Positions 880 through 60,699 of a DNA stretch of 64,000 nucleotides are shown here, one piece after another. This stretch comes from Squalus acanthias. Taxonomy: Eukaryota. A model generated the notes under the pieces. That model was not told where the DNA came from. It searched no databases and saw only the letters and a list, made by a program, of their open reading frames with translations. Position 1 is the first letter of the stretch. Every line of letters begins with the position of its first letter. The stretch lies in NCBI GenBank assembly GCA_030390025.1, contig CM059432.1, forward strand, positions 91,390,001 to 91,454,000, given 5' to 3'. The translations under genes were made by a program, and so were the position numbers.

Positions 880-1170
880 TTATTTTATTAATTCTCTGGA
901 TGTATGTGTTGGTGGCAAAGCTGACATTTATTGTCCAGCGCTAGTTGTTCTTAGAAGGTGGTGGTGGGGCTTCTTCTTGAATCACTGCAGCCATTTTTAT
1001 TCTTTATAATGGTTTGATACAACTGAGTGGCTTGCTAGGCCACTTCAGAGGGCAGTTAAGAGTCAACTACATTGGTGGCAGCCTGGAGTCATATATAGAC
1101 TAGACTGGTAAGGACATCAGGTTTCTGAATTATTAGTCCAAGCCTCAGGATTACTAGTTCAGTAACATAC
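880..1170 (-). mobile_element. Bipartite non-autonomous derivative of the tRNA-headed LINE
   Basis: Matches the 5' UTR (actagtaatcc...ctcttaactgccctctgaagtggcctagcaagccactcagttgta) joined directly to the 3' tail (ctgcag..ttcaagaag..caccaccaccttct..caataaatg) of the element at 2713-5880. Confidence 0.75.
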
Positions 1171-1342
1171 GCTTGTCCAAAAAAGCAATTACAAACTGAT
1201 CATTGTAGGAAAACTAAGATCTGAAGGTACTAATGGTACTTACCTTTAGAGTTCACTATAAAAATGGTCAACCCAGATGCCCATTTTAAATGGGTACACA
1301 ATAATCTCAAAGAATTTCTGGCATCACCCAACCAGCACTGGA

Positions 1343-1625
1343 AGTAGGAACAGGAGTAGGCCATTCAGCCCTTTGAACCAGTTCCACCATTCAATTAGAT
1401 CATGGCTGATCTGTATCTTAACTCCATTTACCTGCCTTGGCTCTATATCCCTTTATACCCATGTATAATAAAAATCTATCATTCTCAGTTGTGAAATTTT
1501 CAAGTGACCTAGTCTCAACAGCTTTTTCCACTACCCTTTGTGTGAAGAAGTGCTTCCTGACATCACCCCTCAATGGTCTAACTCTAATTTTAAGGTTATG
1601 CCCCCTTGTTCTGGACTCCCCCAAC
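1343..1625 (-). mobile_element. CR1 LINE 3' fragment
   Basis: GESRTRGHNLKIR..RKHFFTQRVV and a CR1-type 3' UTR. Confidence 0.85.
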
Positions 1626-2712
1626 TGCTGCAGTCACAACTGCAACCTCAAAGCAGGGCAAAGACCGCATTGTCTGTGGCTGTCAAGGTGACCATGGCTC
1701 TTATCTCTTCTGGATTCTTCCAGGTTGCTGCTGGAGATATAAGCAATGTCTTACAGTTTGCAGTACACAGCTGTGTAAGGGAGGTCACTGAGGCTCTCTA
1801 TACACAGAGAAAAGGCTTTGTCTCATTCCCTCTCGCCAGAGAGGCAAGCAGGCGGAGTGAGCACAAGGGTCTGCACAGATTGCAGGCTTCACCATGGTGC
1901 AGGCTGCCATTGACTGCACACACATTGGCTTGCGTGCATCTCATGTCAACTCAGCCATTTTCCTGAACCGAAAAGGATTCCACTCCCTCAATATGAAGCT
2001 GGTGTGAGACGACAGGCAGCGCATGATGCAGGTGAATGCCCATTACCCTGGCAGCAGTCATGATTCCTTCATTCTGCGGGAGTCCTCTGTGCCAGCGCAT
2101 TTGACCCACCATGGCAAGTCGAAAACTGGCTACTGGGCGACAAGTGTTATCCACTCATGACATGGCTCATGACTCCGGTCCAGAACCCACGCACACGTGC
2201 ACAGCAAGCATACAATGAGAGCCATATTGCCACAAGGAACATTATAGAGCACACCATCGGCATCCTCAAGCAATGCTTCCACTGCCTGGACTGCTCTGGA
2301 GGAGCCCTGTAGTGCTCAGCTGAGCAGTTATCAAGATTTGTGGTAGTATGCTGCATGCTGCAAAACCTGGCCATTTTGAGGGTACAGCACTTGCCACTAC
2401 CTATCAGGCAAGAAGGTGAGGAGCAGGAGCATGAGAACAGAAGAAGGAGGAGGAGGAGGAGGAGGAGGAGGAAGTGCAACAGGAAGTGGAGGAACAGGAA
2501 GAGGAACGGAGGATACAATGCAGACAGCCCCTTTCTGCCCGGGCTCTATGTGAGCAAATAATTCATGAGCGATACAAGTAACCTCAACCACACCTACTCG
2601 TTCACCAACCATCCCACGCTCCTTACCTTTCCTCTATCACTGACCATCGTCCTCTTTCCAACAACATAAAAATAAAAGCCAACAGAAAATGTACATTCCA
2701 GTCCAATTTTAT

Positions 2713-5700
2713 TAGGGAACGGTAGCGTAGTGGTAATGTCACTGGGCTAGTAATCCAGAGGCCTGGCCTAATGATCCAGAGACTCGAGTTCAAATCCCAC
2801 CACGGCAGCTGGGGAATTTAAATTCAGTTAATTAAATAAATCTGGAATAATTACTAGTATCAGTAATAGTAACCATGGAACTATCGGATTGTCGTAAAAA
2901 TCCATCTAGTTCATTAATGTCCTTTAGGAAAGGCAATCTGCCGTTCTGGCCTATATGTAACTGAAGACCCACGCCAATGTGGTTAACTCTTAACTGCCCT
3001 AGAAATGGCCTAGCAAGCCACTCAGTTGTAACAAACCGCTACGAAAAACAATAAAAATGAAACCGGATGGACCATCGACCTCAGCACCAGCTACGGACAT
3101 GGCAACGGCACACCCAGCCCAGTTGACCCTGCAAAGTCCTCCTCACCAACATCTGGGGACTTGTGCCAAAATTGGGAGAGCTGTCCCACAAACTAGTCAA
3201 GCAACAGCTTGACATAGTCATGCTCACAGAATCATACCTTTCAGCCAATGTCCCAAACTCTATCACCATCCCTTGGTATGGCCTGTCCCACCGGCAGGAC
3301 AGACCCACCAGGGGTGGCGGCACAGTGGTATACAGTCGGAAAGGAGTGGCCCTGGGAGTCCTCAACATTGACTCCAGACCCCATGAAGTCTCATGGCTTC
3401 AGGTCAAGCGTGGGCAAGGAAACATCCTGCTGATTAGCACCTACCGCCCTCCCTCAGCTGATGAATCAGTACTCCTCCATGTTGAACACCACTTGGAAGA
3501 AGCACTGAGAGTAGCAAGGGCGCAGAATGTAGTCTGGGTGGGGAACTTCAATGTCTATCACTAAGAGTGGCTCGGTAGCACCACTACTGGGCCTGCGACA
3601 GGTGGTGAGAGAACCAACACGAGGGAAAACCTACTTGACCTTGTCCTCACCAATCTACCTGTCGCAGATGCATCTGTCCATGACAGTGAGCAGTGATCAC
3701 CGCACAGTCATTGTGGAGACGAAGTCGCGTCTTCACACTGAGGACACCCTGCATCGTGTTGTGTGGCACTACCACCGTGCTAAATGGGATGGATTCAGAA
3801 CAGATCTAGCAGCTCAAAACTGGGCATCCATGAGGTGCTGTGGGCCATCAGCAGCAGCAGAATTGTATTCCACCACAATCTGTAACCGCATGGCCTGGCA
3901 TATCCTTCACTCTACCATTACCATCAAGCCAGGGGACCAACCCTGGTTCAATAAGGAGTGTAGAAGAGCATGCAAGGAACAGCACCAGGCGTACCTAAAA
4001 ATGAGGTGCCAAACTGAGGAAGCTGCAACACAGGACTACATGCATGCTAAACAACGGAAGCAGCATGCTATAGACAAGGCTAAGCGATCCCACAATCAAC
4101 AGATCAGATCAAAGCGCTGCAGTCCTGCCACATCCAGTCGTGAATGGTGGTGGACCATTAAACAACTAAAGGGGGGAGGAGGATCCATGAATATCCCCAT
4201 CCTCAATGATGGTGGAGCCCAGCACGAGTGCAAAAGACAAGGCTGAAGCGTTTGCAGCCAGAAGTGCCGAGTGGATGATAAATATCGGCCTACTCCTGAG
4301 GTCCCCACCATCACAGAAGCCAGTCTTCAGCCAATCCGATTCACTCCACGTGATATCAAGAAACGGCTGAGCGCACTGGATACAGCAAAGGCTATCGCGC
4401 TGAAGACTTATGCTCCAGAACTAGTCACACCTCTAGCCAAGCTATTCCAGTACAGCTATAACACTGTCATCTATCCGACAATGTGGAAAACTGCCCAGGT
4501 ATGTCCTGTCCACAAAAAGCAGAACAAATCCAAACCGGCCAATTACCACCCAATCAGTCTACTCTCAATCATCAACAAAGTGATGGAAGGTGTCATCGAA
4601 AGTGCTATCAAGCGGCACTTACTCGCCAATAACCTGCTCACGGGTTCCCAGTTTGGATTCCGCCAAGACCACTCGGCTTCCGACCTCATTACAGCCTTGG
4701 TACAAACATGGACAAAGGAGCTGAATTCCAGAGGTGAGGTGAGTGTGACTGCCCTTGACATCAAGGCAGCATTTGACCGAGTGTAGCATCAACGAGCCTT
4801 AGTAAAACTGAAGTCAGGGGGAAAACGCTCCACTGGCTGGAGTCATACCTAGCACAAAGAAAGGTGGTTGTGGTGGTTGAAGGTCAATCATCACAGTCGC
4901 AGGACATCGTTGCAGGAGTTCCTCAGGGCAGTGTCCTAGGCCCAACCATCTTCAGCTGCTTCATCAATGACCTTCCCTCCAACATAAGGTCAGAAATGGG
5001 GATGTTTGCTGATGACTGCACAGTGTTCAGCGCCATTCACAACTCCTCAGATAATGAAGCAGTCCATGCCCGCATGCAACAAGATCTGGACGATGCAGGT
5101 AACATTCGCGCGACAGAAGCTCCAGGCAATGACTATCTCCAACAAGCGAGAGTCTAACCACCTCCCCTTGACATTCAACGGTATTACCATTGCCGAATCC
5201 CCCAGCATCAACATCCTGGGGGTCACCATTGACCAGAAACTTAACTGGACCAGCCACATAAATACAGTGGCAACAAGAGCAGGTCAGAGGCTAGGTATTC
5301 TGCGGCGAGTGTCTCACCTCCTGACTCCCCAAAGCCTTTCCACCATCTACAAGACACAAGTAAGGAGTGTGATGGAATACTTTCCACTTGCCTGGATGAG
5401 TGCAGCTCCAACAACACTCAAGAAGCTCGACACCATCCAGGACAAAGCAGCCCGCTTGATTGGCACCCCATCCACCACCTTAAACATTCACTCCCTCCAC
5501 CACCGGCGTACCGTGGCTGCAGTGTGTACCATCTATAAGATGCACTGCAGCAACTTGCCAAGGCTTCTTTGGCAGCACCTCCCAAACCCGAGACCTAAAA
5601 GGACAAGGGCAACAGGCGCATGGGAACATCACCACCTCCAAGTTCCCCTCCAAGTCACACACCATCCTGACTTGGAAGTATATCGCCATTCCTTCATCGT

Positions 5701-5880
5701 CACTGGGTCAAAATCCTGGAACTTCCTCCCTAACAGCACTGTGGGAGTAACTTCACCACACGGACTGCAGCAGTTCAAGAAGGCTGCTCACCACCACCTT
5801 CTCAAGGGCAATTAGGGATGGGCAATAAATGCTGGCCTTGCCAGTGATGCCCACATCCCATAAATGAATTTTTTTTTAAA
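2713..5880 (+). mobile_element. Full-length single-ORF APE-RT non-LTR retrotransposon (CR1/L2-group-like) with a tRNA-like 5' head; ORF disrupted
   Basis: 11-bp TSD TCCAATTTTAT (2702-2712 and 5881-5891). APE motifs (LTESYL, YRPP, GNFN, SDH) and RT motifs ([25 protein letters not shown]). Confidence 0.9.
2716..2805 (+). promoter_or_regulatory. tRNA-derived Pol III internal promoter (A and B boxes)
   Basis: A box TAGCGTAGTGG at 2723-2733; B box GAGTTCAAATCC at 2786-2797. Confidence 0.75.
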
Positions 5881-6651
5881 TCCAATTTTATGAATTCAAT
5901 CAAGACATAATGCATAAAAAAATAAATTAATCGCCCTGGTACATTCCTTAGTGCCTGTGCCTATCCTAGTGCTCCGACGAGGTGCGTCCCAAGTGGCTGC
6001 AGCATAGATGGTAGAAAGCTGCTGACCTTCAATTAAGGATACAGCAGATGGTCTCGCAGGACGACCTGGAGCAGCTCTGGGCCTAGAATGCCCGGCTTCA
6101 GACTGCACCACCTCGGCATGGGCGGCAGTCATCTAGGCTGGCTTCTTGACAGGCAACAGCAAGGGTACTGGCAGAGTGGCAGTGCTGGGAGCAGGAATGC
6201 TCCATAGAGCCACTGCCACTCTCCCGGGGCGGTGCCTCAGCAATTCTAATGCTCTGTTGGAGAAAAGATTGATGGACTGCTGTGATGCCTTGGAAGCCCC
6301 TTTGAACAGTGATATCCAAAGCCATGGTGGCAGCAGTCTGAGATTCCACTGCAGCACTCAGACTTTTGGTGGAAGCTGCTTGTGCTACAATGGAAGCTGT
6401 GACATAAGCCACCAGACACTGTATCATGCTAGGTTCCACAGGTGGGCTGATGGAGGTGACCACCCATTCCATGTTGGAAAGGATGGGCTCCAAGGTCTGC
6501 GCACAGCCCTGTGCCAAATTGGTGCTGGACTCCTCCAAGCTCTTTGATATTGAGCTCCGGCTTTCTAGCAAGCTTTCCTGTGCACCAAGCATTTGGGTTT
6601 GTACACCCATCAACCTTCTTCTGTAGCATGGCCCATCAAAGTCCTCATCTG

Positions 6652-8387
6652 GTGGGGCCCAGCACGCGAGTGCAAAAGACAAGGCTGAAGCGTTTGCAAC
6701 AATCTTCAGCCAGAAGTAGAGTGGATGATACTTCTCGGCCTCCTCCTGGGGTCCCCACCATCACAGAAGCCAGTCTTCAGATAATTCGATTCACTCCACG
6801 TGATATCAAGAAAAGACTGAGCGCACTGGATACAGCAAAGGCTATGGGCCCCGACAACATCCCGGCTGTAGTGCTGAAGATGTGTGCTCCAGAACTAGCC
6901 TCGCCTCTAGACAAGCTGTTCCAGTACAGCTACAACACTGGCACCGACCCGACAATGTGGAAAACTGCCCAAGTATGTCCTGCCTACAAAAAGCAGGACA
7001 AATCCAATCCAGCCAATTACCGCCCCATCAGCCTACTTTCAGTCATCAGCAAAGTGATGGAAGGTGTCGTTGACAGTGTTATCAAGCTGCACTTACTCAC
7101 CAATAATCTGCTCACCAATGCTTAGTTTAGGTTCCGCTAAGACCACTCGGCTCCCGACCTCATTACAACCTTGGTCCAAACATGGAAAAAAAGAGCTGAA
7201 TTCCAGAGGTCAGGTGAGTGTGACTGCTCTTGACATCAAGACAGTATTTGACCGCGTGTGGCATCAAGGAGCCCTAGTAAAATTGAAGTCAATCGGAATT
7301 AGGGGGGAAACTCTCCACTGGAGTCATACCTAGCACAAAGGGAGATGGTTGTGGTTGTTGGAGGTCAAACATCTCAGCCCCAGGACATCGCTGCAGGAGT
7401 TCCTCAGGGCAGTGACCTAGGCCCAACCATCTTCAGCTGCTTCATCAATGACCTTCCCTCAATCATAAGGTCAGAAGTGAGGATTTCACTGATGATTGCA
7501 GTGTTTAGTTCAATTTTCAACTCCTCAGATAATGAAGCAGTGCTTGCTTGTATGCAACAAGGCCTGGACAACATTCAGGCTTGGGCTGGTAAGTGGAAAC
7601 TAACATTCGCGCCACACAAGTGCCAGACAATGACTATCTCCAACAAGAGAGAGGCTAGCCACCTCCATTTGACATTCAACGGAATTACCATCGCTGAATT
7701 CCCACCATCAACATCCTGGGGGTCACCACTGACCAGAAACTTAACTGGACCAGCCATATAAATACTGTGGCAACAAGAGCAGGTCAGAGGCTGGGTATTC
7801 TGCAGCGAGTGTCTCACCTCATGACTCCCCAAAGCCTTTCCACAATCTACAAGGCACAAGTCAGGAGTGTGATGGAATACTCTCCACTTGCCTGGATGAG
7901 TGCAGCTCCAACAACACTCAAGAAGCTCGACACCATCCAGGACAAAGCAGGCTGCTTGATTGGCACCCCATCCACCACCTTAAACATTCACTCCCTCCAC
8001 CACCGGCGTACCGTGGCTGCAGTGTGTACCATCTACAAGGTACACTACAGAAACTCACCAAGGCTTCTTCGACAGTACCCCCCAAACCCGTGACCTCTTC
8101 CACCTAGAAGGACAAGGGCAGCAAGTGCATGGGTACAGCACCACCTCCAAATTCCCCTCCAAGTCACACACCATCCTGACTTGGAAATATCTCCCCGTTC
8201 CTTCATCATCGTTGGGTCAAAATCCTGGAATTCCCTACCTAACAACACTGTGGGAGTACCTTCACCATACGGACTGAAGTGGTTCGAGAAGACCGCTCAC
8301 CACTACCTTCTCAAGGGCAATTAGGGATGGGCAATAAATGCTGGCCTTGCCAGTGACGCCCACATCCCATGAATGAATTAAAAAAAA
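6652..8387 (+). mobile_element. 5'-truncated copy of the same APE-RT LINE, inserted in H2 Myb exon 3
   Basis: RT and 3' tail match 4210-5870; A-rich tail; ATCTG duplicated at both ends. Confidence 0.9.
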
Positions 8388-10024: not shown

Positions 10025-12447
10025 TTTTTATTTATTTGATCCTGGGATGTGGGCGTTGTTGGCAATGCCAGCATTTACTGCCCATCCCTAATTGCCCTTG
10101 AGAAGGTGGTGGTGAGCCGCCTTCTTGAACCGCTGTGGTAAATGTACGTCCAGAGTGCTGTTCGGAAAGGAGTTCCAAGATTTTGACCCAGCAACGATGA
10201 AGGAACAGCGATATATTTCCAAGTCAGGATAGTGTGCAACTGGGAGGTGATGACGTTCCCATGCACCTGCTGCCCTTGTCCTTCTAGGTGGTAAAGGTCG
10301 CAGGTTTGGGAGGTGCTGTCGAAGAAGCCTTGAGGAGTTGCTGCAGTGCATCTTGTAGATGGTACACACTGCAGCCACGGTACACCGGTGGTGGAGGGAG
10401 AGAATGTTTAAGGTGGTGGATGGGGTGCTATACAAGCGGGCTGCTTTGTCTTGGATGATGTCGAGCTTCTTGAGTGTTGTTGGAGCTGCACTCATCCAGG
10501 CAAGTGGAGAGTATTCCATCACACTAAATGGTGAGAGATTGGGAAATGTTGGTGTTCAGAAGGCCCTGGGTGTCCATGTACACGAATCACTGAAAGCTAA
10601 CATGCAGGTACAGCAAGGAATTAAGAAAGCAAATGGTATGTTGGCCTTTATTACAAGAGGATTTGCGTATAAGAGTAAAGAGGTCTTACTGTAATTATAT
10701 AGGGTTCTGGTGAGACCACACCTGGAGTATTGTGTACAGTTTTGGTCTCCTTACCTAAGGAAGGATATACTTGCCACAGAGGGAGTGCAACAAAGGTTCA
10801 CCAGACTGATTCCTGGGATGGGGGGATTGTCGTATGAGGAGAGATTGAGTAGACTAGGCCTATATTCTCTAGAGTTTAGAAGAATGAGGTGTGATCTCAT
10901 TGAAACATACAAAATTCTTACAGGGTTTGACAGGGTAGATGCAGGGAGAATGTTTCATCTGGCTGGGGAGTCTAGAACCAGGGGTCACAGTCTCAGAATA
11001 AGGGTCAGCCATTTAGGACTGAGACGAAGAGAAATTTCTTCACTCAGAGGGTGGTGAATCTTTGGAATTCTCTACCCCAGAGGGCTGTGGACGTGCTCAG
11101 TCGTTGAGTACATTCATGACAGAGATCGATAGATTTTTGGATAATCAGGGAATCAAGGGATATGGGGATAGTGCAGGAAAGTGGAGATGAGGTAAAAGAC
11201 CAGCCATGATCTTATTGAATGATGGAGCAGGCTCAAGAGGCCAAATGGCCTACTCCTGCTCCTATTCCTTATGTTCTTACTCCTGACTTGTGCCTTGTAG
11301 ATGGTGGAAAGGCTTTGGGGAGTCAGGAAGTGAGACACTCGGCGCAGACTACCCAGCCTCTGATCAGCTCTTGTAGCCACAGTATTTATGTGACTGGTCC
11401 AGTTAAGTTTCTGGTCACTGGTGACCCCCAGGATGTTGATTGGTAGGGGATTTGGTGATGGCAATGCCATTGAATGTCAAGGGGCGGTAGCTAGACTCTC
11501 ACTTGTTGAAGATAGTCATTGCCTGGCACTTGTGTGGCGCAATGTTACTTGCCACCTATCAGACCAAGCCTGAACATCATGCAGGTCATGCTGCAAGCGG
11601 GCATGGACTGCTTCATTATCTGAGGAGTTGCGTATGGAGCTGAACACTGTGCAATCATCAGCGAACATCCCTACTTTTGACCTTATGATAGAGAGAAGAT
11701 CATTGATGAAGCAGCTGATGATGGTTGGGCCTAGGACACTGCCCTGAGGAACTCCTGTAGCGATGCCCTGGGGCGGATGTTTGCGAATGCTTCAGCCTTG
11801 TCTTTTGCACTCGCGTGCTGGGCTCCGCCATCATTAAGGATGGGGATATTTATGGAGCCTCCTCCCGTTAGGTGTTTAATTGTCCACCACTATTCATGAC
11901 TGGATGCGGCAGGACTGCAGAACTTTGATCTGATCTGTTGATTGTGGGATCACTTAGCTCTGTCTATAGCATGCTGCTTCCGCTGTTTAGCATGCATTTA
12001 GTTCTGTGTTGCAGCTTCACCAGGTTGGCACCTCATTTTTAGATACGCCTGGTGCTGCTCCTGGCATGCTCTTCTACACTCCTCATTGAACCAGGGTTGG
12101 TCCCCTAGCTTGATGGTAATGGTAGAGTGAGGGATATGCTGGGCCATGAGGTTACAGATTGTGGTAGAATACAATTTTGCTGCTGCTGATGGCCCACAGC
12201 GCCTCATGGATGCCCAGTTTTGAGCTGCCAGATCTGTTCTGAATCTATCCCATTTAGCATGGTGGTAGTGCCACACAACAAGACGGGACTTCGTCTCCAC
12301 AAGGACTGAGCGGTGGTCACTGCTACCAATGCTGTCATGGACAGATGCATCTGCGGCAGGTCAAGTAGGTTTTTCCCCTCGTGTTGGTTCTCTCACCACC
12401 TGCCGCAGGCCCAGTCTGGCACCTATGTCCTTCAGGACTCTGCCAGT
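10025..12447 (-). mobile_element. Internally deleted copy of the same LINE family
   Basis: MEYSPLAWMSAAPTTLKKLD and WDRFRTDLAAQNWASM; interrupted by a CR1. Confidence 0.85.
10525..11278 (+). mobile_element. 5'-truncated CR1 nested in the LINE above
   Basis: KKANGMLAFI, RPHLEYCVQFWSP, cttatgttctt tail. Confidence 0.9.
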
Positions 12448-20490: not shown

Positions 20491-21192
20491 AATATACAGC
20501 CATGGTCTTCCCTGATGTGCCTCCCATAGGTGAATAGCCCTTACAATATACAGCCATGGTCTTGCCTGATGTGCCTCCCATAGGTGAATAGCCCTTACAA
20601 TATACAGCCATGGTCTTGCCTGATGTGCCTCCCATAGGTGAATAGCCCTTACAATATACAGCCATGGTCTTGCCTGATGTGCCTCCCATAGGTGAATAGC
20701 CCTTACAATATACAGCCATGGTCTTGCCTGATGTGCCTCCCATAGGTGAATAGCCCTTACAATATACAGCCATGGTCTTGCCTGATGTGCCTCCCATAGG
20801 TGAATAGCCCTTACAATATACAGCCATGGTCTTGCCTGATGTGCCTCCCATAGGTGAATAGCCCTTACAATATACAGCCATGGTCTTGCCTGATGTGCCT
20901 CCCATAGGTGAATAGCCCTTACAATATACAGCCATGGTCTTGCCTGATGTGCCTCCCATAGGTGAATAGCCCTTACAATATACAGCCATGGTCTTGCCTG
21001 ATGTGCCTCCCATAGGTGAATAGCCCTTACAATATACAGCCATGGTCTTGCCTGATGTGCCTCCCATAGGTGAATAGCCCTTACAATATACAGCCATGGT
21101 CTTGCCTGATGTGCCTCCCATAGGTGAATAGCCCTTACAATATACAGCCATGGTCTTGCCTGATGTGCCTCCCATAGGTGAATAGCCCTTAC
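20491..21192. repeat. Tandem minisatellite, 13 x 54 bp
   Basis: Unit aatatacagccatggtcttgcctgatgtgcctcccataggtgaatagcccttac; 12 identical copies plus one with a single substitution; no spacers. Confidence 0.97.
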
Positions 21193-44419: not shown

Positions 44420-47400
44420 CATAGGATATACGGCACAGAAACAGGCCATTCGGCCCAACAAGTCCATGGCATTTATGCTCCACACGAGCCTCCTCCCATC
44501 TTTCCTCATCTAAATCTATCAGCATAACCTTCTATTCTCTTCTCCCTCATATGCTTGTCTAGCCTCCCCTTGAATGCATCTATACTATTCACTTCAACCA
44601 CTCCCTGTGGTAGCGAGTTCCACATTCTCACCACTCTTGGGTAAAGAAGTTTCTTCTGAATTCCCTATTCGATTTCTTGGTGACTATCTTATATTGATGG
44701 CCTCCAGTTATGCTCTTCCCCACAAGTGGAAACATTCTCTCTGTATCCACTCTATCAAAATCTTTCATAATTTTAAAGACCTCTATTAGGTCATCCCTCA
44801 GCCTTCTTTTTGCAAGAGAAAAGAGACCCAGCCTGTTCATCCTTTCCTGATATGTATACCCTCGCATTTCTGGTATCATCCTTGTAAATCTTCGCTGCAC
44901 CCTCTCCAGTGCCTCTATATCCTTTTTATAATATGTCGACCAGAACTGTACACAGTACTTGCAAGTGTGGTCTAACCAAGGTTCGATACAGGTTTAGCAT
45001 AACTTCCCTACTTTTCAATTCTATCCCTCTAGAAATAAACCCTAGTGCTTGGTTTTCTTTTTTTTTTAAATGGCCTTGCTAACCTATGTCTCAACTTTTA
45101 GTGATTTGTGTATTTGTACTCCTAGATCCCTTTGTTCCTCTACCCCACCTAGACTCGCACCTTCCAAGTGATGTGACATCCCTATTCTTCCTACCAAAAT
45201 GTAATACCTCTGTGTTGAACTTCATTTGCCAATTATATGCCCTCCTCCTCAGTATTGACCTTGCCCCCCCAATTTGATGTTATCCGCAAATTTAGAAATT
45301 GTGTTTTTGATTCCCAAGTCTAAATCGTTAACGTAAATTGTGGACAGCAGTGGTCCTAGCACTGATCCTTGTGGAACACCACTACCCACCTTCTGCCACT
45401 GTGAATAGCTACCCTTTACTCCTACTCTTTGCTTTCTGTCCTGAAGCCAACCAGTAATCCATTCTGCTACTTGTCCCCTGACTGCATTCTCTGACCTTGT
45501 TCATCCGTCTATTATGGGGGTACCTTATTGAAGGCCTTTTGAAAATCCAGATAAATTACATCTACTGCATTACCATTGTCTACTCTCTCTGTTACCTCTT
45601 CAAAAAATTCAATAAGGTTGGTCAAGCTAGACTTTCCCTTTTGAAATCCATGTTGACTATTCATTATTATATTTTTGGTTTCTAGATGTTCTTCTATTTT
45701 CTCCTTTAGTAGGGATTCCATTATTTTTCCTACCACCGATATTAAGCTGACTGGTCTATAATTCCCTGGACATGTTCTATCCCCCTTCTTAAATATCAGT
45801 ATTACGTTAGCTATCCGCCAGTCCTCTGGCACTATACCTTTTTCTAACAAACTATTAAATATGCATAGTAATGCCTCTGCTATCTCTTCCCTAGATTCTT
45901 TTAAAATGCATGGATGCAATCCATCTGGACCAGGGGTTTTATCCTCTGAGTTTGATTAATTTATTTAATATATCCCCTTTTTAATTTTAAATGCACTTAT
46001 CTCATTACTAATCTCATCATCCAATGTCATGTCCACCTGTTCTACCTCCCTGGTAAATACTGAAGTAAAATAATTATTTAATATTTCTGCCATCTCTCTA
46101 TCATCACCTGTGGTATTATCCTGACTATCTCTTAATGGCCCTATTCCCATCCCAACCTTCCTTTATTTACTGATGTGCCTATAAAATATTTTACTATTTT
46201 GTTTTATGTTCCTTGATAATTTCATAGTTCCTCTTTGCCTCCCTAATTGTTTTTTTGACTTCTCTCCTAATCTTTTCGTATTCTCCCTTATCATGCACTC
46301 ATAAGAACATAAGAACATAAGAAATAGGAGCAGGAGTAGACCAATCAGCCCCTCGAGCCTGCTCCGCCATTCAATGAGATCATGGCTGATCTGATCCAAC
46401 CTCAACTCTAAAGAACACAAGAAGTAGGAGCAGGACCAGGCCACCCACAGGGCCTTGACCGATCCGAATTCAAACTCATGTCCAATTTCCAGCCCGCTCC
46501 CCGTAACCCCTAATTCCCTTTACTTCTAGGAAACGGTCTATTTCTGTTTTAAATTTATTTAATGAAGTAGCTTCCACAGCTTCCTGGGGTAGCAAATTCC
46601 ACAGACCCACTACCCTCTGAGTGAAAAAGTTTCTCCTCATCTCAGTTTTGAAAGAGCAGCCCCTTATTCTAAGATTATGTCCCCTAGTTCTAGTTTCACC
46701 CATCATTGGGAACATCCTCACCGCATCCACCCGATCAAACCCCTTCACAATCTTATATGTTTCAATAAGATCGCCTCTCATTCTTCTGAACTCCAATGAG
46801 TAGAGTCCCAATCTACTCAACCTCTCCTCGTATGTCCACCCCCTCATCCCCGGAATTAACCGAGTGAACCTTCTTTGTACTGCCTCGAGAGCAAGTATGT
46901 ATTTTCTTAAGTATGGACACCAAAACTGTATGCAGTACTCCAGGTGCGGTCTCACCAATACCCTATACAACTGCAGCAATACCTCCCTGTTTTTATATTC
47001 TATCCCCCTAGCAATAAAAGCCAACATTCCATTGGCTTTCTTGATCACCTGCTGCACCTGCATACTAACTTTTTGACTTTCTTGCACCAAGACCCCCAGA
47101 TCCCTTTGTACTGCAGTACTTTCCAGTTTCTCACCATTAAGATAATAACCTGCTCTCTGATTTTTCCTGCCAAGTGCATAACCTCACATTTTCCAATATT
47201 GTATTGCATCTGCCAAATCTCTGCCCACTCACCCAGCCTGTCTATATCCCCTTGTAGGTTTTTTATGTCCTCCTCACTCTCTACTTTCCCTCCCATCTTT
47301 GTATCATCTGCAAACTTTGATATGTTACACTCGGTCCCCTCCTCCAAATCGTTAATATAGATTGTAAAGAGTTGGGTACCCAGCACCGACCCCTGCGGAA

Positions 47401-50310
47401 CACCACTGGCTACTGGTTGCCAGTCCGAGAATGAACCATTTATCCCAACTCTCTGCTTCCTGTTAGATAACCAATCCTCCACCCATGCCAGAATATTACC
47501 CCCAATCCAGTGATTTTTTATCTTGAGTAATAATCTTTTATGTGGCACCTTGTCGAATGCCTTCTGGAAGTCTAAATACACTACATCCACTGGTTCCCCT
47601 TTATCCACCCTGTACGTTATGTCCTCAAAGAACTCGAGCAAATTTGTCAGACATGACTTCCCCTTCATAAAGCCATGCTGACTTTGTCCTATTAAATTAT
47701 GTTTATCTAAATGTTCCGTTGCTGTCTCCTTAATAATAGACTCCAAAATTTTACCCACCACAGATGTTAGGCTAACTGGTCTATAATTTCCAACCTTCTG
47801 CCTACTACCCTTTTTAAATAAGGGTGTTACATTAGCAGTTTTCCAATCTGCCGGGACCTTTGCTGAGTTCAGGGAGTTTTGGAAAATTATTACCAAAGCA
47901 TCCACAATTCCTACTGCCACTTCCCTCAAGACCCTAGGATGTAAGCTATCAGGTCCAGGGGATTTATCCGCCTTGAGTCCCATTATTTTACTGAGTACCA
48001 ATTCCTTAGTGATTTTAATCGTATTTAGCTCCTCCCCCACTAGAGCCCCCTGTTTGTCCAGTGTTGGGATATTCTTAGTGTCCTCTACCGTAAAGACTGA
48101 AACAAAATATTTGTTCAGCATTTTTGCCATCTCCATGTTTCCCACCATTAATTTCCCGGTCTCATCCTCTAAGGGACCTACGTTTGCCTTAACCACCCTT
48201 TTTCTTTTTATATAACTATAGAAACTCTTGCTATCTGTTTTTATATTTTTTGCTAATTTATTTTCATAGTCTATTTTCCCTTTCTTAATCAATCCTTTAG
48301 TTACTTTTTGTTGTCTTTTGAAGACTTCCCAATCTTCTATCCTCCCACTAACTTTGGCTACCTTATATGTCCTTGTTTTTAGTTGGATACTTTCTTTAAT
48401 TTCTTTACTTAGCCATGGATGGCTGTCATTTCTTTTACACCCTTTTTTCCTCAGTGGAATATATTTATTTTGAAAGTTGTAAAATAACTCCTTGAATGAA
48501 CACCACTGCTCATGTACCGTCTTACCCTTTAATCTATTTTCCCAGTCCACTTTAATCAATTCTGCTCTCATACCATCATAGTCTTCTTTCTTCAAGCTCA
48601 GTATGCTTGTTTGAGAACCAACCTTCTCACCCTCTAATTGGATATGGAATTCAACCATGTTATGGTCACTCATTCCAAGGGGATCCTTAACTAGGACATT
48701 ATTAATTAGTCCTGACTCATTACACAGTACCAGGTCCAAGGTTGCTTGCCCCCTTGTAGGATCAGTTACATACTGCTCAAGAAATCCATCCCTAAGACAC
48801 TCAATAAACTCTTCCTCAAGGCTGCCCTGCCCAATTTGATTTGTCCAGTTAATAGGATAGTTAAAATCCCCCATAATTATAGCTGTTCCCTTATTACATG
48901 CCCCAACTATTTCCTGATTAATACTTCTTCCAACAGAGTTGCAACTATTAGGAGGCCTATATACTACGCCCACCAGTGTTTTTTTCCCCTTATTATTCCT
49001 TATCTCTACCCAAACTGTTTCATTATCCTGATCTTTTGACCCAATATCATTTCTCTGTATTACAGTGATTCCTTCCTTTATTAACATAGCCACCCCCCCT
49101 CCCCTTCCTTCCTGCCTGGCCTTCCTGATTGTTAAATACCCTGGCATATTTAATTCCCAGACGTTGTCACCCTGCAGCCATGTTTCTGTAATGGCCACAA
49201 GATCATACCCATACATAGTTATTTGTGCCGTTAACTCGTCCATTTTGTTACGAATGCTACGTGCATTCAGATAAAGAACTTTCAAATGTGTTTTGCGACA
49301 CTTACTTCCTGCTTTTTCCTTATTTAACACTTTACCTTTTACTCCATGCTTTCCTCTGTCTCCCTGCTCAGGTTCCCAACCCCCTGCCACATTAGTTTAA
49401 ATCCTCCCCAACAGCACTAGCAAACACTCCCCCTAGGACAGCGGTCCCGGCCCCTTCTGTCTTTGTATGTAATATATGCCTCTTTCCTTACCCTCAATTG
49501 TTCCCTTATGGCTTTATTCATCCATGGAGTCTCATTATTGTTTAGTTTGTTCTTTCCTTTTAGCAGAATATATTTTTCCTGCACTCTGTTGAACACTGTT
49601 TTAAATGTTTCCCATTGCTATTCTACATCGTTGTTTGCTAATATTGTTGACAATTTCCCCCCCCCCAAGTTCTATTCTCAGCCCTTCAAAATCAGCTTTT
49701 CTCCAATCTATTAACCTGGTTTTCATCATACTTATATCCTTCTCAATTATCATCTTAAAGCATATTATATTATAGTCACTATTGCCTATATGTTCCCCTA
49801 CCTTTACTTCTCTTATCTGCTCTGGCTCATTTCCCATTACTAGATCCAATAGCGAATCCTCCCTTGTTGGGCTTTTTACATGTTGGGTTAGGAAGGAGTC
49901 CTGTACACATTGTAGGAACTCCATTCCCTTATCCCCTTTACCTACCTACTTCTTCTGTCCAATTAATATCTGGGTAGTTGAAATCCCCCCTGATTATTAT
50001 TCTATGTTTTTTACTCATTTCCCTAATTGGTCTGCATATTTCTTCCTCCACCTCCCTTCCACTATTAGGTGGTCTGTAGTCTACATCTATTAGTGTGATT
50101 GATCCTTTATTATCTTTTATCTCTATCCATATGGATTCTATTTTTGTCTTACTGATATCTTCGTCACTTTTTTCTACTGCCATTATGTTATCCCTATTAA
50201 GTACAGCTACTCCACCTCCACCTTTTCCCTCCCTATCTTTTCTCAATATGTTATACCCTGCAATGTTTAATTCCCAGTCCTGATTTTTCTGCAGCCAAGC
50301 CTCAGTAATC
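44420..50310 (-). mobile_element. Older CR1 (44420-46300 and 49455-50310) in intron 1 of the H4 Myb gene
   Basis: APE fragments at 49601-50246, RT at 45512-45919, C-terminus at 44628-44900. Confidence 0.85.
46301..49452 (-). mobile_element. Young CR1 with near-intact ORF2 (APE plus RT), one frameshift near 47171
   Basis: 781-aa ORF 47045-49390 ([31 protein letters not shown]) continued by ORF 46476-47090; duplicated 3' UTR. Confidence 0.95.
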
Positions 50311-59715: not shown

Positions 59716-60699
59716 ATTTTTATTCGTTCCTGGGAAGTGGGCGTCGCTGGCAAGGCCAACATTTATTGCCCATCCCAAACTGCCCTGGAGAAGGTGGTGG
59801 TGAGCCGCCTTCGTGAACCGCTGCAGTCCGTGTGGTGAAGGTACTCCCACAGTGCTGTCAGGGAGGGAGTTCCAGGATTTTGACCCAGCAACAATGAAGG
59901 ATCGGCGATATATATCGAAGTCAGGATGGTGGATGACGTGGAGGGGAACTCGGAGGTGATGATACTCCCATGCGCCTGCTGTCCTTGTCCTTCTAGTTGG
60001 TAGAGGTCGCGGGTTTGGGAGGTGCTGTCGAAGAAGCCTTGGCGAGTTGCTGCAGTGCATCTTGTAGATGGTACACACTGCAGCCACGGTGCGCCGGTGG
60101 TAGAGGGAGTGACTGTTTAAGGTGGTGGATGGGGTGCCAATCAAGCGGGCTGCTTTGTTATAGATGGTATTGAGCTTCTTGAGTGTTGTTGGAGCTGCAC
60201 TCATCCAGGCAAGTGGAGAGTATTCCATCACACTCTTGACTTGTAGATGGTGGAAAGGCTTTGGAGAGTCAGGAGGTGAGATACTCCTCACAGAATACCT
60301 AGCCTCTGACCTGCTCTTGTAGCCACAGTATTTATGTGGTTTGTCCAGTTAAGTTTTTGGTCAATGGTGACCCCTCAGGATGTTGATGGTGGGGGGATAT
60401 GGCGATGGTAATGCCGTTGAACATCAAAGGGAGGTGGTTAGACGCTCTCTTGTTGGAGACAGTCATTGCCTGGCACTTGTGTGGCATGAATGTTACTTTC
60501 CACTTATCAGCCCAAGTCTGAATGTCGTCCAGGTCTTGTTGCATGCGGGCACAGACTGCTTCATTATCTGAGGAGTTGCAAATGAAATTGAACTCTGTGC
60601 AATCATCAGCGAACATCCCCATTTCTGACCTTATAATGGTAATAAGGTCATTGATGAAGCAGCTGAAGATGGTTGGACCTAGGGCACTTCCCTGAGGAG
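59716..60699 (-). mobile_element. 5'-truncated copy of the tRNA-headed LINE family
   Basis: FADD, MEYSPLAWMSAAPTTLKK and the matching 3' tail. Confidence 0.88.

Follow-up and report, generated by a model that had tools for sequence, protein, structure and literature searches.

A family-wide tRNA-like head on the elasmobranch LINE Zenon and its possible transcription by Pol III

Introduction

By the textbook division, LINEs are coding elements transcribed by Pol II and SINEs are non-coding elements transcribed by Pol III (PMC10886601, PMC5786205). An element at 2713-5880 of the window (the whole stretch of shark DNA that was analysed, 64,000 nucleotides) raises the question whether this division always holds. 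An earlier note, made from the letters of the window, described it as a LINE with a tRNA-type promoter and a body free of terminators, and proposed that its family may be transcribed end to end by Pol III and translated non-canonically. The family makes up about 4% of a vertebrate genome, is common to sharks and rays, and appears to cross the line between LINEs and SINEs.

The element and its surroundings

The features of the element are collected in Table 1. As the earlier note had it, one 11-bp TSD flanks both the A/B-box head and the APE-RT region. This is atypical for the family, in which a TSD of at least 7 nt was found by a strict adjacency test in 2 of 28 full-length copies. The 5' end of the family lies at 2715; the letters at 2713-2714 are not common to the copies. 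The copy in the window is 96% identical to the family majority (3307 nt, taken column by column from 36 near-full copies), has 150 nt deleted and is dead, with its ORF in pieces. In the majority the ORF runs for 973 codons in one frame, and the Pfam matches in it (PF03372, PF14529 and PF00078) are those of an APE endonuclease and a reverse transcriptase. Of the subfamily-diagnostic changes in this frame 14 out of 22 are at third codon positions, an excess that points to coding masters, as expected.

Table 1. Features of the element and of a related sequence in the window (positions of the window)
Feature	Position	Strand	Remarks
Left copy of 11-bp TSD	2702..2712	+	identical 11-mer at 5881-5891
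tRNA-like head	2715..2800	+	A box 2723-2733, B box 2788-2796
Leader body	2801..3055	+	also found in SINE-like derivatives; most of the 9 upstream AUGs lie here
Single APE-endonuclease and reverse-transcriptase ORF	3032 to about 5815	+	five pieces in the window copy
Out-of-frame AUG	3057..3059	+	opens a 48-codon overlapping frame ending at 3196; where homologues start with Met
AATAAA polyadenylation signal	5824..5829	+	39 nt upstream of the T-run; in 75/83 tails
Terminal T9, then A3	5869..5880	+	across copies a T-run of 1-11, then an A-tail
Right copy of 11-bp TSD	5881..5891	+	same 11-mer as 2702-2712
Old SINE-like relative	900..1190	-	leader (to 3059) joined to tail (from 5765), 76-79% identical

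Directly upstream of the insertion lies a decayed transposase of the DDE_Tnp_4 (PIF/Harbinger) type (window 1500-2560, + strand; PF13359 match at 2064-2309, E 5.7e-12), and the element may have inserted within a decayed transposon of this type. Other copies of the family, rearranged or truncated at the 5' end, lie at 6650-8379, 10043-12415 and 59722-60698, and at 20491-21192 a 54-bp unit is repeated in 13 copies with 99% identity.

Identity and abundance of the family

The leader of the family agrees, by eye, with the first 400 nt of the published SquAca_Zenon-1 consensus, the part that was compared. Judged by this 5' match, the element is an elasmobranch Zenon, a single-ORF LINE of the CR1 group, in decayed form. 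Stuart et al. (2026) describe Zenon in five elasmobranchs at >84% identity, always with a poly-A tail and without ORF1 (PMC13343379). The absence of ORF1 pointed out in the earlier note is thus correct, the 335-nt leader holding short uORFs only, and is not special, being normal in Zenon. The family has therefore already been published as a consensus; its head, terminator-poor body, T+-like end and missing start are unremarked in the main text of that paper, where the words 'tRNA', 'promoter' and 'polymerase' do not occur; 'tRNA' is also absent from the searched supplement. A literature search that covered few subscription papers returned neither a Zenon nor any other autonomous LINE reported to have a Pol III head.

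In the five published shark and ray lineages inspected by eye, the A and B boxes stand at the start, the spacer between them has diverged, and the first 400 nt hold no T4. In the published consensuses of hagfish and coelacanth Zenon, also read by eye over the first 400 nt, the head is absent and T4+ runs are present. One of the top full-length homologues (P0002, 33% identity) has, by eye, the endonuclease N-terminus of Zenon-1_Hmel (PMC6740152). In an RT tree built without named reference RTs, the family falls outside the group (support 96/94) that holds the canonical shark CR1, and the node linking it to P0002 and P0003 is not settled.

Within 40 evenly picked 10-kb tiles of the 3.7-Gb genome, Zenon occupied 16,040 of 400,000 nt, or about 4%. 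Among the copies in these tiles, 2 are headed and coding and 4 are short relatives, of which 3 have the tail; this suggests, with a wide margin, that headed copies number ∼10^4 in the genome. Five annotated shark proteins (P0001, P0012, P0017, P0020 and P0032) hold pieces of the ORF at 68-85% identity, probably through contamination of gene models and possibly through exonisation.

The tRNA-like head

Both boxes of the head match the tRNA-promoter consensus. They form the sole A+B pair in the window with both strands scanned, where 0.017 would be expected per shuffled window. By Rfam the tRNA ancestry of the head is weak (14.8 bits, E 4.5, for 2716-2778), and ARAGORN called no tRNA. Of the 24 aligned copies that extend to the 5' end, 19 have both boxes intact, and 47 of 105 fetched loci start at 2713-2716.

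Whether the head belongs to the mobile unit was assessed in three samples. When loci were sought with the head, 37 of 39 non-self loci continue into the endonuclease and the other two consist of head and tail only. When they were sought with the junction, 12 of 39 reach 2713-2721 and the others are truncated inside the same leader. With a distant homologue as protein query, 28 of 44 matches were fetched, chosen for starts near the N-terminus; 5 of these 28 copies reach 2714-2716, 23 stop at staggered points between 2730 and 3218, and no other shared leader was found among them. Comparison of the flanks upstream of the 105 loci yielded 7 matching pairs, with no larger group, and thus neither an alternative leader nor an ORF1. 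It is therefore not the case that most full-length copies lack the head: the head-seeded loci, the five published lineages and the one TSD agree with the earlier view that it moved as part of the element. Overall, head, leader, APE-RT frame, AATAAA, T-run and A-tail are mobile as one unit of 3.3 kb, and that this structure is real and family-wide is virtually certain. Of the traits of SINE2 elements, the family has the tRNA-related 5' head with A/B boxes; at 3.3 kb and 973 codons it is neither short nor non-coding, traits that only its ∼450-nt derivatives show.

T-runs in the body

No T4+ run occurs between 2713 and the terminal run, as the earlier note claimed. The terminal run itself is T9 (5869-5877) rather than the T10 read there, and A4+ runs are indeed frequent (14 in the element). 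The T4-free stretch is the longest in the window; for a single copy, such a stretch has a chance of P=0.009 by mononucleotide and P=0.096 by dinucleotide shuffling. The trait is ancestral to the family and not a quirk of this copy, the family majority being without internal T4. Internal T4 is absent in 25 of 36 copies, and the 16 runs found in the 36 rows are all private and arise at the rate of neutral decay (0.44 per copy versus 0.49 simulated). The majority has 7 T3 runs, one window with four T's in five positions, and no TVTTT, which is a partial type of Pol III terminator (PMC8466645).

The count of T-runs in the majority was then compared with synonymous shuffles, in which protein and codon usage are fixed. 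T4 runs do not occur in the consensus at the expected rate, yet 0 versus 1.8 is not significant (P 0.09-0.11), so that chance could account for the absence of T4 taken by itself. The wider idea of terminator avoidance fared better: T3+ runs (5 versus 11.2, P 0.004-0.007) and near-terminators with four T's in five (1 versus 5.6-5.8, P 0.006-0.011) are depleted, values to be read in the light of several statistics having been tried. Runs of at least three A, C or G showed no depletion against the same shuffles.

The control family was CR1, taken from a young canonical copy at 46300-49450 of the window (- strand; ∼97% identical to 12 others) that has an open stretch of 782 codons and belongs to a family with ORF1 and an AUG-led ORF2. 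The CR1 majority has 14 T4+ runs in 5078 nt, without depletion, compared to none in the Zenon majority. In the 400 kb of tiles, T4 runs occur at 0.51 per kb in the decayed copies of Zenon, 3.64 in CR1 and 2.34 in a third LINE; part of the contrast with CR1 arises because the sense strand of Zenon is T-poor (T fraction 0.19-0.20 versus 0.24). Three counted Zenon pieces elsewhere in the window have one T4 in 3.8 kb. Metagenome relatives served as outgroup controls: 11 of 20, pooled, hold 51 T4 runs against 45.5 expected, after nine loci were left out (six with fragmented or overlapping match spans, three with matches <250 nt). An insect Zenon-like relative without an upstream A/B pair (L178) is mildly depleted in T3+ (P 0.022) and in four-of-five windows (P 0.014) and retains 4 T4 runs despite this; another relative (L179) is borderline. 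Overall, terminator avoidance shows as a genuine signal of moderate strength.

The 3' end

Most tails (68 of 83) parse as a T-run followed by at least A3, and most of the remaining 15 are also A-rich. The length of the T-run that precedes the A-tail is 1 letter in 27 tails, 2 in 16, 3 in 15, 4-7 in 7 and 10-11 in 3, i.e. 2-3 in 31 and at least 4 in 10 of the 68 parsed tails. The Pol III RNAs of T+ SINEs carry a shortened terminator at their end and are then polyadenylated (PMC12101331, PMC10572872). T-runs before A-tails may lengthen after insertion, and their variation is therefore not proof of Pol III termination. A distance of 39 nt between AATAAA and T-run lowers T+ polyadenylation, and Zenon elements in general have a poly-A tail (PMC13343379). 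In one locus (L065), a T4 followed by an A-run is inserted in the leader at position 2895 of the window, resembling the family's own 3' end.

SINE-like derivatives

Junction-seeded searches recovered elements of ∼450 nt in which leader (to 3035-3060) and tail (from 5737-5796) meet at many different points, with 70 to 97% identity. In a leader tree that used 30 of 61 LINE leaders, SINE-like and coding labels interleave (6 changes, 2 forced), and hence the direction, SINE to LINE or LINE to SINE, is not settled by the tree. Similar leader-tail joints occur in contigs of other organisms. The simplest reading is that these elements would be repeated deletion products of the headed LINE. Large internal deletions with both ends kept, unusual for LINEs, are common among headed copies (L093, L124, L127, L130, L135 and L212). 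The idea that leader and tail pair over a long range and so cause the deletions was rejected, since their four 7-bp matches are close to the number due to chance.

The leader and the start of translation

The family leader measures 335 nt and contains 9 upstream AUGs; its body is conserved in the five published elasmobranch lineages. Short leader motifs are absent from the searchable supplements of papers on SINE superfamilies (Meta, Deu, V and CORE), where domain alignments are given as figures. The fold of the leader is not unusual (z 0.26), which lends no support to a structured, IRES-like leader.

The earlier observation that no in-frame AUG just precedes the APE start holds for the family, the first Met of the majority being codon 287. 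The in-frame TGA at 3124-3126 is CpG decay, as had been suspected (CGA 17, CAA 13 and TGA 4 of 36 rows). Of the two out-of-frame ATGs named earlier, the family as a whole has that at 3057, and its majority lacks that at 3099. Among full-length homologues the closest (P0035, 39% identity) begins with Met and an Arg-rich peptide that aligns to the main frame from ∼3070, which places the expected start near 3056-3064; between-lineage changes in this region, read by hand, include Arg-preserving ones in the main frame. The AUG at 3057, which is out of frame by one base, is shared by the five published lineages and is AUA in one small in-genome subfamily and in 6 of 6 contigs of organism C, which weakens it as an obligatory start. 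The in-frame ACG at 3041 is ancestral here (50 of 70 parsed copies, by decay pattern only) and absent in four other lineages; it is therefore not a general start. Two further routes were rejected: readthrough from the AUG at 3005 would need the passage of two stops, and reinitiation past the uORF stop at 3196 would leave the first endonuclease motif out of the protein. With the AUG at 3057 out of frame and AUA in some, and ACG 3041 not shared, we infer that the APE-RT protein is initiated non-canonically, by a slip from the AUG at 3057 or at a non-AUG codon.

Discussion

The question raised by this locus is which polymerase reads a coding element with such a head. The head stands in place of a normal 5' UTR throughout the family. 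That the active masters would be transcribed end to end by Pol III is in our judgement the best single explanation, though as a proposition evenly balanced and argued from sequence. Contigs of presumed RNA runs span the element; as they do not show start, strand or cap, they weigh on neither side. The steps would be as follows. An ancestral Zenon gained the head, probably via template switching, before sharks and rays split. Pol III would start at 2715, pass through the terminator-free body and stop in the terminal T-run, and AATAAA would direct polyadenylation of the RNA, as it does in mammalian T+ SINEs. The protein would start near 3056-3064, at the head of its Arg-rich N-terminus, either at a non-AUG codon or through slippage from the out-of-frame AUG; the RNA would be copied by target-primed reverse transcription, and repeated internal deletions that retain head and tail would give rise to SINEs. 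The full proposal, in which Zenon would be an autonomous element whose 3.3-kb Pol III RNA serves as both mRNA and template, with T+-like poly-A addition, translation without cap or AUG, and a role as parent of SINEs, we put forward tentatively, as falling a little short of an even prospect. Pol III RNAs are uncapped and poorly translated (PMC5703244), and the processivity of Pol III is thought to limit transcript length (PMC10886601).

A serious if less probable explanation is that the element is an ordinary Pol II LINE and gained its 5' UTR by capturing a SINE-like head. Pol II would start in or upstream of the leader, AATAAA would be a normal polyadenylation signal, and T4 would be missing because the coding strand is T-poor and C-rich. 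Capped RNA would solve the recruitment of ribosomes, although cap-dependent scanning, too, is ill served by 9 upstream AUGs and the lack of one in frame. Such an origin is in line with the P of about 0.1 for the absence of T4 alone, the mild depletion in the insect relative L178 and the generality of poly-A tails in Zenon. It also fits the finding that Pol III-type promoters drove luciferase, and thus gave translated RNA, even with T-runs present, a hint that another polymerase is involved (PMC5703244), and the tRNA-like stretch within RTE-1_DAn, noted with no Pol III claim in the passage concerned (PMC5786205). What it leaves unexplained is that five lineages retain the A and B boxes around a spacer that differs, that T3+ and four-of-five windows are depleted beyond codon usage, and that the sole T4 is at the 3' end.

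These three points, together with the T+-like end, would be covered without translation of uncapped RNA if Pol III made the full-length RNA for reverse transcription, the element acting as a giant SINE, and the protein came from capped Pol II read-through of genic copies. Read-through should be plentiful for a family of about 4% of the genome, and the subfamily that lacks the AUG at 3057 still spread. Such a division of labour would still need a start codon, however, and purifying selection on the master ORF (seen in the third-position changes) is easier to understand if the protein acts on its own RNA; we regard it as rather improbable. An accidental chimera at a single locus, or a SINE inserted beside a truncated LINE, could draw on the head-and-tail elements that are common in the genome, but the same colinear junction lies between unrelated flanks in 37 of the 39 head-seeded loci and recurs in the five published lineages, and one TSD encloses the whole. 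A single-locus accident is refuted by the family data, and we attach almost no probability to this explanation.

If the element is made by Pol III, it would provide a natural Pol III messenger RNA and a test case for initiation that is independent of cap and AUG; it would also extend T+-type polyadenylation beyond mammals and show an origin of SINEs by simple deletion. Even if it is made by Pol II, a SINE-type leader has been kept across sharks and rays, unremarked in the main text of PMC13343379.

Among known systems, the published elasmobranch Zenon elements (SquAca_Zenon-1 to -3, CarCar_, ScyCan_, RhiTyp_ and HypSab_Zenon-1; PMC13343379) share with the family one APE-RT ORF, the lack of ORF1 and an A-tail; over the first 400 nt of each consensus no difference in kind was seen, and SquAca_Zenon-1 measures 3314 nt as compared to 3307 nt for the family majority. 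Insect Zenon (Zenon-1_Hmel) also yields internally deleted derivatives, Persaeus (PMC6740152). Unlike the family here, Persaeus as described there is without a tRNA head or Pol III promoter, and insect Zenon has an annotated ORF start and T4 runs. RTE-1_DAn resembles the element as a LINE noted to contain tRNA-like sequence (PMC5786205). Bov-tA and SINE2-1_ACar combine a tRNA head with LINE-derived sequence (PMC5786205, PMC4494074), but in these the head is joined to an already deleted, non-coding LINE, whereas here a full coding LINE bears it. The T+ SINEs B2, Dip and Ves have, like Zenon here, a tRNA A/B head, AATAAA, a variable T-run and an A-tail (PMC8466645, PMC12101331, PMC10572872); they are short and non-coding and, in these sources, reported in placental mammals only, whereas the Zenon element of sharks and rays is 3.3 kb long and codes for protein.
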